Source of the DNA: a virus
Taxonomy: Duplodnaviria > Caudoviricetes
Length of the DNA: 64,000 nucleotides
IMG/VR virus record: IMGVR_UViG_3300005345_000001
Coordinates: 16,507-80,506 of that record
Direction: 5' to 3' (one strand)
Shown: positions 45,429 to 47,001 of the stretch, piece after piece
Position numbering within the stretch: the first letter of the stretch is position 1
Layout of the letters: the number at the start of each line of letters is the position of its first letter
Program-made: the position numbers and the translations under genes
The notes under the pieces: generated by a model
Database searches by the model: none
What the model was told of the DNA's origin: nothing
The model's input: only the letters and a program-made list of their open reading frames with translations

Positions 45429-45886
45429 AGCTCATCAAACAAGACAAGTCGCTCAAAGACATCATCATCAACATTTTTACCAGTTGCCATGGACATGGCC
45501 GGCGCAGGGCGGCTGTGTTTCACTTCAAGTTCGGCCTACCACAAAAGAAAGAAAACATACCTATGCCAACCACTGTAGAGATCACTAACGAACAGAAGGT
45601 CAAAGTGACCCTTGCGCCCGTCACCGATACGGGCAAGCCAGCGAAGCTGGACGGGTCCCCGTCCTGGGCCGTCATCACCGGCAACTCACAGGTCGTGGTA
45701 GCAGACGACGGATTGTCTGCTGACTTGATCAGTTCCGATGATCCGGGTGACACCCAGGTCCTGATTAAAGCCGACGCCAATCTTGGGGAGGGCGTGGAGG
45801 AAATCTCCGATACCATCACCCTGACGGTGATTGGTGCGACGGCTAAGAATCTTGGTGTGACGGTCGGGGCTCCGGAACCAAAATGA
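45425..45886 (+). CDS. Ig-like domain protein
   Basis: All-beta pattern: VKVTLAPVTDTGKPAKLDGSPSW...DGLSADL...ADANLGEGV. Alternative start MPTTV at 45562. Confidence 0.6.
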   Translation: MKLIKQDKSLKDIIINIFTSCHGHGRRRAAVFHFKFGLPQKKENIPMPTTVEITNEQKVKVTLAPVTDTGKPAKLDGSPSWAVITGNSQVVVADDGLSADLISSDDPGDTQVLIKADANLGEGVEEISDTITLTVIGATAKNLGVTVGAPEPK

Positions 45887-45975
45887 TGTGTCCTCACTGC
45901 GGGAGGGAGCTGGCGCAAATTACGCCAACCCTCCTGCGGTGTGATCCCTGCCGCTACTCACACGGCGTGGCCCCT

Positions 45976-46299
45976 TCACACACGCTCGATGAGTATGTCA
46001 GCGCCTTCGTCTCCGGCTGGCACACGGACAACACGGACAGATATCTCAGGGATCCAGCTGACGGAGTCGTCCAACGGCAGTGACAAGGCAATCCAGGATT
46101 GTCGATTGAGCCCCGTCTGCATCCCTTTCTCGCCGGTCAGAAACGTAGAGCGTAACTGTGACTCGAAACTGCGGATGCACTGAGCCATCCACTTTTGCCT
46201 TTCGGGTTTTGTGATGAGCTTTCTGCCCGTCCACTGCTTGCTGTTCTTGAAGGACGGGACGTGACCTAAGCCCCTCACGCTTAGCTTGATAGGCGGCAT
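45976..46299 (-). CDS. RusA-like protein, frame A (N-terminal PSxKN and C-terminal DD segments)
   Basis: GHVPSFKNSK...LDDSVSWIPEISVRVVRVPAGDEGADILIERV. Confidence 0.55.
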   Translation of the reverse strand: MPPIKLSVRGLGHVPSFKNSKQWTGRKLITKPERQKWMAQCIRSFESQLRSTFLTGEKGMQTGLNRQSWIALSLPLDDSVSWIPEISVRVVRVPAGDEGADILIERV

Positions 46300-46324
46300 A
46301 ATCTTTCGCTGTCCAGCGGGCCAT
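46046..46324 (-). CDS. RusA-like protein, frame B (catalytic RxDxD and LDxL segment)
   Basis: MARWTAKDYAAYQAKR...FRVTVTLYVSDRRERDADGAQSTILDCLVTAVG; overlaps frame A for 254 nt. Confidence 0.55.
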   Translation of the reverse strand: MARWTAKDYAAYQAKREGLRSRPVLQEQQAVDGQKAHHKTRKAKVDGSVHPQFRVTVTLYVSDRRERDADGAQSTILDCLVTAVGRLRQLDP

Positions 46325-46350
46325 TGGAACAGTAATATCCACTAAGTCCA

Positions 46351-47001
46351 ATGGCAGTTCCAATCGAAAGAGTGCGGGCGCAATGGCGTGCGGCGAACAG
46401 ACGCTATCGAAAGCGGCATCCAGAACGTGGCCGTGAGCGCAGAAAACAATACAGCAAGGCGTGGAGACTTCGAAATCCAGAGAAGGCCAAAGCGGCTGAC
46501 ATGAGATGGCGACTAGCTAATCCAGATAGGGTTAAGGAATCAGCCCGTATTGCTGGTAAAAAGTGGCGCGCTAATAACTTGGAAAGAGCCAAGGCTATGT
46601 GCGCTAGGTGGCAGCGGTCCAATCGGGAATATGTTAACCGTAAAGAGCGCGAACGATGCGCAGCCGACCCGTCGTATCGGTTGGCGAGATGCCTTCGGTC
46701 TAGGATACGGCGGGTGTTGCGTCTGAGAGCTGCAACCAAACGGGATAATACCGCCGCCCTCACTGGTTGCTCGGTCCAATTCCTTATGGGACACTTGGAG
46801 GCACGATTCCAGCCTGGGATGTCATGGGACAATTACGGCAACGTTTGGGAAGTCGATCATATATTCCCCTGTGCTATGTATGATCTGGCTGTCGACTCTC
46901 AGCAACGAGCCTGCTTCCACTATACCAATCTTCAACCACTGTTCGTTAGTGATAACCGCAGGAAATACACCAAACTACCAAAGGTACCATTGTGTCAATA
47001 A
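46351..47001 (+). CDS. HNH endonuclease
   Basis: Arg-rich repeats, then HLEARFQPGMSWDNYG..WEVDHIFP...FHYTNLQPL...N. Confidence 0.9.
   Translation: MAVPIERVRAQWRAANRRYRKRHPERGRERRKQYSKAWRLRNPEKAKAADMRWRLANPDRVKESARIAGKKWRANNLERAKAMCARWQRSNREYVNRKERERCAADPSYRLARCLRSRIRRVLRLRAATKRDNTAALTGCSVQFLMGHLEARFQPGMSWDNYGNVWEVDHIFPCAMYDLAVDSQQRACFHYTNLQPLFVSDNRRKYTKLPKVPLCQ

Follow-up and report, generated by a model that had tools for sequence, protein, structure and literature searches.

Is a phage locus in which the motifs of a RusA-like resolvase are divided between two overlapping reading frames a broken gene, a gene decoded by frameshifting, or a pair of genes? The question was raised by a sequence-only reading of a locus in the window analysed here (the whole stretch of 64,000 nucleotides, taken from a soil phage record of 80,506 bp which has direct terminal repeats and is 100% complete). 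That reading left the choice between a split enzyme, assembled from two dual-coded polypeptides, and a product recoded by a -1 and then a +1 shift. The comparative evidence favoured the first part of this proposal, in that two polypeptides probably rebuild one RusA-like resolvase, and made the second part less likely.

Layout of the locus and its homologues

Two same-strand ORFs, designated A and B, were recovered with their overlap when the coordinates were re-derived (Table 1), in agreement with the initial description. ORF A starts with MPPIKLSVRGLGHVPSFKNSK and ends with PLDDSVSWIPE...GDEGADILIERV; the motif GHVPSFKNSK lies close to its N-terminus, and PLDDS...EGADILIE closes its sequence. 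ORF B, read from its ATG, begins MARWTAKDY and includes FRVTVTLYVSDRRERDADGAQSTILDCLVTAVG, and its second half contains FRVTVTLYVSDRRERDADG...ILDCLVTA. The codons of B begin 1 base upstream of those of A, i.e. B is in frame -1 to A. The locus is the final gene of a leftward array and converges on a rightward operon.

Table 1. Positions in the window of the two ORFs, their segments and residues, and the neighbouring genes.
Feature	Position (nt)	Strand	Description
ORF A	45976-46299	-	107 aa and stop; own ATG at 46299
ORF B	46046-46324	-	92 aa and stop; ATG of MARWTAKDYAAYQAKR at 46324
ORF B, alternative start	46046-46363	-	in-frame TTG at 46363
Overlap of A and B	46046-46299	-	254 nt, same strand
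B N-terminal peptide MARWTAKDYAAYQAKR	46277-46324	-	selected in frame B; TGG invariant, frame-B third positions most variable
N segment, A residues 1-49	46153-46299	-	selected in frame A; A third position most variable; strand 1, GHVPSFKNSK, long helix ending SFESQL
B leader, B residues 17-52	46169-46276	-	unconstrained; frame-B reading of the A-selected segment
Doubly constrained zone	46153-46170	-	A S44-L49; B F53-T58
Middle segment, B F53-L87	46064-46168	-	selected in frame B; A second position (B third) most variable; strand, SDxRxRDxDG, helix STILDCLVTA
A linker, A residues 50-74	46078-46152	-	unconstrained; frame-A reading of the B-selected segment
C segment, A P75-V107	45979-46077	-	selected in frame A; LDDS, two strands, EGADILIE
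B D68 (candidate metal-binding residue)	46121-46123	-	
B D70 (candidate metal-binding residue)	46115-46117	-	
A D77 and D78	46066-46071	-	
B V45-D46	46187-46192	-	NTG-GAT in frame B, forced by A's invariant W37-M38 (TGG ATG)
216-aa gene	46351-47001	+	HNH-like C-terminus
66-aa ORF	45883-46083	+	N-terminal zinc ribbon

The neighbouring 216-aa gene is divergent from the locus and begins 26 nt from the ATG of B. Its HNH-like C-terminus (EVDHIFP...NLQPL...DNRRK) matched PHROG 1035, “endonuclease VII” (E 1.8e-6), and its N-terminal half contains basic repeats of the type W-R-x-x-N-P-E-(K/R). This gene is opposite in orientation within the leftward array, as is often the case for free-standing homing-type nucleases. 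On the other side, the 66-aa ORF closes the rightward operon; its N-terminal CxxC...CxxC zinc ribbon gave weak Pfam zinc-ribbon matches (E ~0.01), and it runs antisense to the last 108 nt of ORF A, which may correspond to a long convergent overlap or to an over-called 3' end.

Fifty-five database homologues of ORF A were contiguous over 86-100% of its length with 40-67% identity, the one exception being an 82-residue fragment (73%). These 55 homologues had no Pfam domain, and shared the invariant residues S16, K18, N19, D77, D78, S79, G99 and A100. The DNA of 47 loci (IMG/VR viral contigs, metagenomes and one Verrucomicrobiota MAG) provided about 31-35 distinct usable homologues. In every one of these, frame B was also open, starting well before VPSFKN and continuing across the middle, where its consensus was (F/Y)RVTVTLRVSDxRxRDxDGALSTLLDCLVxA; the third frame was full of stops. 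Reciprocal sampling by means of the B motif added 7 further distinct viral loci (IMG/VR), all of them with an open A frame carrying (V/I)P(S/A)FK, DD(S/N/A) and EG(A/C). The two-frame layout was thus present in about 38 distinct homologues from many samples, and is far beyond chance, since it was the same in every homologue examined. In this sequence the DxD motif (B D68 and D70) lies in frame B and the DD motif (A D77 and D78) in frame A, which is the division between frames first noticed.

The family is large. A profile of B, run against a 1.84-billion-protein library (50% identity clusters), retrieved 409 representatives at E <= 1e-3, 332 of them at E <= 1e-10. All the B-type proteins that were read (13/13) showed ...VQEQQ..., the shadow that the PSFKNSK motif of A casts in frame B, and gene callers often chose B over A. 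No contiguous close relative with all the elements in one frame was found among the approximately 38 homologues or in a 5.8-billion-protein set; from the latter, a read-through composite of the two frames retrieved A-type proteins alone, scoring below A itself.

Two homologous loci deserve separate mention. In one homologue (L031:675-1310 and L034:1462-2052), ORF A had no stop after EGADIHI and continued into a Cys-rich zinc-ribbon-like tail (CENCG...CWEC), for a total of about 211 aa, a natural fusion which suggests translation of frame A through its end. The other, a metagenome contig (L043:1426-1824), had a single ORF in which A-type and B-type text replaced one another, a sign of frameshift errors in the assembly; it was excluded from all counts.

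Selection on the two frames

The most variable codon position was scored along A in a codon alignment of 31 homologues. It was A's third position at residues ~1-43 and 75-107, and A's second, that is to say B's third, at residues ~50-74. This shift of the wobble position along the alignment implies purifying selection on frame A, then on frame B, and then on frame A again. A's middle and B's leader varied freely in amino acids and are shadows of the other frame; the impression that A's middle reads like off-frame sequence was accordingly borne out, residues 50-74 being unconstrained and selection acting there in frame B. Both frames were conserved, segment by segment and in alternation, and none of the homologues carried all the motifs in one ORF. 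Where the N and middle segments meet, an 18-nt zone is constrained twice: A's Q48 (CAR) and L49 (TTR, either TTA or TTG in 30 of 31) fix the third positions of B, which are invariant in this zone, and the F/Y-R-V-T-V of B fixes those of A.

Across the N and middle segments, A and B were open in 31/31 homologues, and frame C in 2 (N segment) and 6 (middle) of 31. The best antisense frame was open in 24/31 homologues in the middle and in 0/31 in the N segment. In control trials with long ORFs from the same loci, the +1 frame was open over 27 codons in ~0.4-0.5 of cases and the -1 frame over 68 codons in ~0.06-0.18. Synonymous codons were also resampled with the selected protein held fixed: the mean probability of an open A middle given B's protein was 0.23, and that of an open B leader given A's protein 0.15, the products over the 31 homologues (1e-22 and 1e-28 respectively) assuming an independence which is only approximate. 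Avoidance of synonymous codons that would stop the other frame was also visible at single sites. F17 of A was encoded by TTC in 29/29 homologues, the unused TTT giving TAA in B when followed by AAR; N19 by AAC in 31/31, the unused AAT giving a stop in B before a codon starting with AG, AA or GA; and D77 by GAC in 29/29, the unused GAT giving TGA in B before GA. At D78, where no B stop is possible, both codons were used (GAC 21, GAT 10).

Such a layout might be attributed to a pseudogene with compensating indels, to an assembly error, or to the constraint exerted by an antisense gene, and one homologue, L043, is visibly frameshifted. However, the same layout recurs in the ~38 diverged homologues from many samples, and the DNA of the window was found letter for letter, and free of indels, in independent rhizosphere and soil assemblies. 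The wobble periodicity in the codon alignment can be taken as proof of selection in both sense frames, and an antisense gene was ruled out as the cause of the constraint, no antisense frame being consistently open. An artefact or gene decay is highly improbable and this explanation is already refuted; at the level of comparative sequence, the arrangement is confirmed as a family trait and not a broken gene.

Start codons were present for both ORFs. Nearly all loci had a start for B (ATG in 30/35, otherwise GTG or TTG) at 61-121 nt upstream of VPSFKN, and the N-terminal peptide of B showed frame-B periodicity upstream of A's start. The start which had been noticed in B as natural-looking is here the ATG at the head of a conserved peptide. 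Two flavours of this peptide were distinguished, M-P-R-W-T-x-E-x-L-x-x-Y-E and x-E-L-K-R-x-F-P-x-A-S-x-x-F-I-x-x-N, and neither matched a known family. An ATG for A was located 27-63 nt upstream of VPSFKN in 21/35 loci vs. 2/35 in the control frame; other loci had TTG or GTG at the same place, several of them with in-frame stops just upstream. A's ATG was typically formed, inside the B peptide, from the TAT-G of B's conserved Tyr codon, which was TAT and not TAC in nearly all of the subgroup. A scan for promoters and terminators gave nothing above chance, and none of the sequencing runs recorded as RNA contained the stretch.

The NTG at B V45, seven codons before the B core, was GTG or ATG in ~25/30 homologues. 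A short form of B could be initiated at this codon; being imposed by the codons of A (Table 1), the codon is in itself no evidence of such a start.

Likeness to RusA and predicted structures

Pfam gave no match for A or for B. The Pfam RusA family (PF05866) did not match the read-through composite, in which the A and B frames were joined using three four-letter words, and had no match at E <= 10 in the six frames of the whole phage genome. A alone was equally without match in Pfam, PHROGs and PDB searches. B alone showed a weak match in PHROGs to phrog_34, “RusA-like Holliday junction resolvase” (E 0.0019), the read-through composite matched the same family (E 0.011), and the top PDB match of the B profile was RusA 1q8r (E 0.3, RusA residues 35-85).

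Profiles were then compared by hhalign with a reference alignment of 27 contiguous Verrucomicrobiota RusA genes and E. coli RusA. An A-B-A composite family, built for each homologue from the N-terminal part of A, the core of B and the C-terminal part of A, with junctions chosen by the analyst, aligned with a Prob of 94.6% (P 7.2e-8, score 47.3), compared with 78.9% for B alone (P 1.6e-5, score 34.3) and 1.1% for A alone (P 0.049, score 16.0). The strong stretch of the composite alignment ran from RDxDG via DDS to the last strand, spanning the B-to-A junction, and with a loose setting the alignment was collinear over 103 columns. E. coli RusA has three catalytic acidic residues, D70, D72 and D91. 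RDxDG (in B) and DDS (in A) aligned with RDLDN and DDAQ of RusA; B D68 and A D77/D78 were invariant among the homologues, and the second Asp of DxD was not. No single frame held all the RusA elements in any of the ~38 homologues. These signals are several, weak and concordant, and we conclude from them that the composite has a distantly RusA-like fold and lies outside PF05866 as defined.

The fold order of RusA (E. coli DLP12, PDB 1q8r/2h8c; PF05866) is also that of the composite: a strand, a P-S-x-(K/N) loop, a long helix and a strand, followed by a basic run with D-x-D, a helix, DD and two strands. RusA is likewise ~105-120 residues long and sits in a phage. It is, however, one polypeptide from one frame, whereas here the elements alternate between two overlapping ORFs; in addition, the position of RusA K76 is occupied by Ser or Thr, and B has an extra N-terminal helix.

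Among sampled Verrucomicrobiota genomes (the phylum of the MAG that provided one homologue, L047), PF05866 was found in 48 of 401, in two forms: an E. coli-like form with PPSxNxYY, and a longer one with PPTKTHQxKK...KPDxDN. The likely host phylum therefore has ordinary RusA too.

AlphaFold2 models of A (35 sequences) and B (128 sequences) were complementary in their confident parts. Per ten-residue block, the pLDDT was 84, 83, 89, 90, 86, 55, 45, 55, 80, 87 and 84 for A, and 81, 72, 58, 59, 58, 87, 92, 95, 88 and 65 for B. A fell to 45-55 over residues 51-80; B was at 58-59 over residues 21-50 and at 87-95 over residues 51-80, and a helix was modelled at its residues 6-16 (pLDDT 81). The DNA coding for the confident part of either protein also codes for the unconfident part of the other. 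RusA 1q8r was the top structural match of the A model by Foldseek (E 1.4, weak) and by VIA (Z 4.0, rmsd 3.8, 76 residues aligned, rank 1 of 48,161, also weak), and was the sole top VIA row covering the whole model. In the ESM Atlas all scores for A were under 0.9, and the B model had no structural match in the PDB.

Prediction of an A+B complex gave a median score of 0.45 (runs of 0.43, 0.45 and 0.64), the best control reaching 0.00; contacts agreed between runs at >=75% and the partner pLDDT was >=50. The pass mark was reached by 58/80 solved complexes and by 2/110 mismatched pairs; passes at <=0.60 comprised only 7/80 solved complexes, plus both passing mismatches. The models thus lend weak support to a putative binding of A to B.

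Weak support for a complex, together with the failure of either protein alone to match a family, might indicate that A and B are both made and have separate roles (e.g. DNA binding or regulation for A, with B as a small protein), their likeness to RusA being a relic. We consider this quite unlikely. The best-conserved residues, RDxDG in B and DDS in A, are those which align with catalytic or neighbouring positions of RusA; the well-predicted part of each model lacks its partner strands; and A and B have stayed paired in hundreds of clusters.

Two chains, recoding and known overlapping genes

The preferred explanation was that of an ancestral nuclease domain cut into two polypeptides, the pieces of which are interleaved B-A-B-A in two frames and have long been kept in a large phage family, the active site forming on assembly of both products of one mRNA; we consider this detailed version slightly more probable than not. 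A single mRNA would contain two genes, A and B, which overlap almost completely and are each initiated at a start of their own. Strand 1, helix 1 and the PSFKNSK loop would come from protein A, as would the DDS motif, the two final strands and the free linker that precedes them. Protein B would contribute a short helix at its N-terminus, a leader free of constraint and, for the middle of the fold, a strand, SDxRxRDxDG and helix 2. Neither protein has all the acidic residues of RusA catalysis; assembled, probably as (AB)2, they would form one RusA-like fold with a metal site joining D68 and D70 of B with D77 and D78 of A. While the phage replicates and packages its DNA, the complex may resolve branched molecules or Holliday junctions. 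What the comparison shows is purifying selection in alternating frames, selection for two open frames, a start codon for each ORF and a remote, collinear likeness of the composite to RusA; we infer the translation of both ORFs, the assembly of A with B and the nuclease activity.

The alternative of recoding would yield one fused RusA-like chain. Starting from A, this would take a -1 shift near S44/F45 and a +1 shift near A83/L76; starting from the ATG of B, it would take three shifts. In favour of recoding, the alternation of the conserved segments follows the RusA fold order exactly, it is as an A-B-A composite that the family matches RusA, and junction 1 had T_TTC in 21/31 homologues, where a slip of tRNA-Phe is possible. 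However, a canonical slippery heptamer (X_XXY_YYZ) was found in only 1/31 homologues and was absent from the junction here, as the sequence-only reading had already remarked, and the tetranucleotide at junction 1 varied (TATC, CATC, TATG and others). There were no homopolymers at the junctions of the 31 homologues, RNAalifold predicted 0 pairs over the junction region in the same 31, and there was no Rfam match and no tRNA gene. Quadruplet decoding was considered and ruled out on the lack of a tRNA in the window and of a conserved four-base word at junction 2.

Recoding also leaves several features unexplained: the stop-free middle of A and leader of B, the start codons on both ORFs, and the double constraint on the 18 nt at junction 1. 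These 18 nt encode both the end of the A helix and the start of the B strand, which could not be present together in one fused chain; in such a chain, moreover, helix 1 would run into the following strand with no loop in between. Recoding into one chain is therefore unlikely, and two separate chains are favoured because they account for the open unused stretches, the two starts with the N-terminus of B, and the doubly constrained junction 1.

The collinear alternation implies that the ancestor was one RusA-like gene hit by frameshifting indels. The hosts have RuvC, and loss of the resolvase could have been tolerated in them; compensating indels may have come next, after which a chance-open frame with an upstream start would have allowed fragment complementation, and reversion would then need two simultaneous indels. 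Beside the remoteness of the likeness to RusA, the weak complex prediction and the partial dependence among the homologues, two points count against the split into two chains. The strict collinearity with the RusA fold is what frameshifts in one gene leave, which is also the starting point of recoding, and to arrive at two chains that complement each other takes no fewer than two indels, as well as a frame that happens to be open.

If the split is real, it would be a new way to encode an enzyme, in which each of two frames spells parts of one fold and the fold is put together once they are translated. A recoded product would instead involve a multi-shift event without a known signal, and either outcome would be new. 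Gene callers annotate A alone or B alone, as hypothetical, so that a widespread candidate phage resolvase is invisible to annotation. The locus may also provide a natural test case for frameshift mutations locked in through fragment complementation, and may exemplify in nature two products that must be co-expressed at a fixed stoichiometry; codon-phase analysis could reveal more such genes. No described precedent of a frame-interleaved enzyme was found in the literature, within a search of incomplete coverage. The PRFect paper was considered as a precedent and rejected, its mention of a RusA/RuvC frameshift tracing to a 1991 ruvC paper.

As expected of an overlapping gene pair, each of the two frames has a start codon, stays open in the relatives and shows purifying selection there. 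Three known systems besides RusA resemble the arrangement in part. Programmed frameshifting (dnaX, IS3-family transposases, the phage tail chaperone G/GT) depends on a conserved slippery site and a stimulator, and involves one shift. In it, as would be the case here, one functional product draws on two frames, but it needs no long open off-frames, and its slippery site, stimulator and single shift do not hold for this locus. Rz and Rz1 of phage lambda are same-strand genes that share DNA in different frames and whose products form one functional complex. The sharing of DNA by two same-strand genes in different frames is common to both cases; Rz1, however, is a separate, unrelated protein embedded in Rz with dual constraint throughout, whereas A and B would be complementary pieces of one ancestral domain and the constraint alternates by segment. 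In overprinted viral genes (reviewed in PMC8227390), a novel protein arises on top of an existing one; the long same-strand overlap in a virus is similar, but at this locus the pieces of a single old fold are distributed over both frames and only ~18 nt are doubly constrained.
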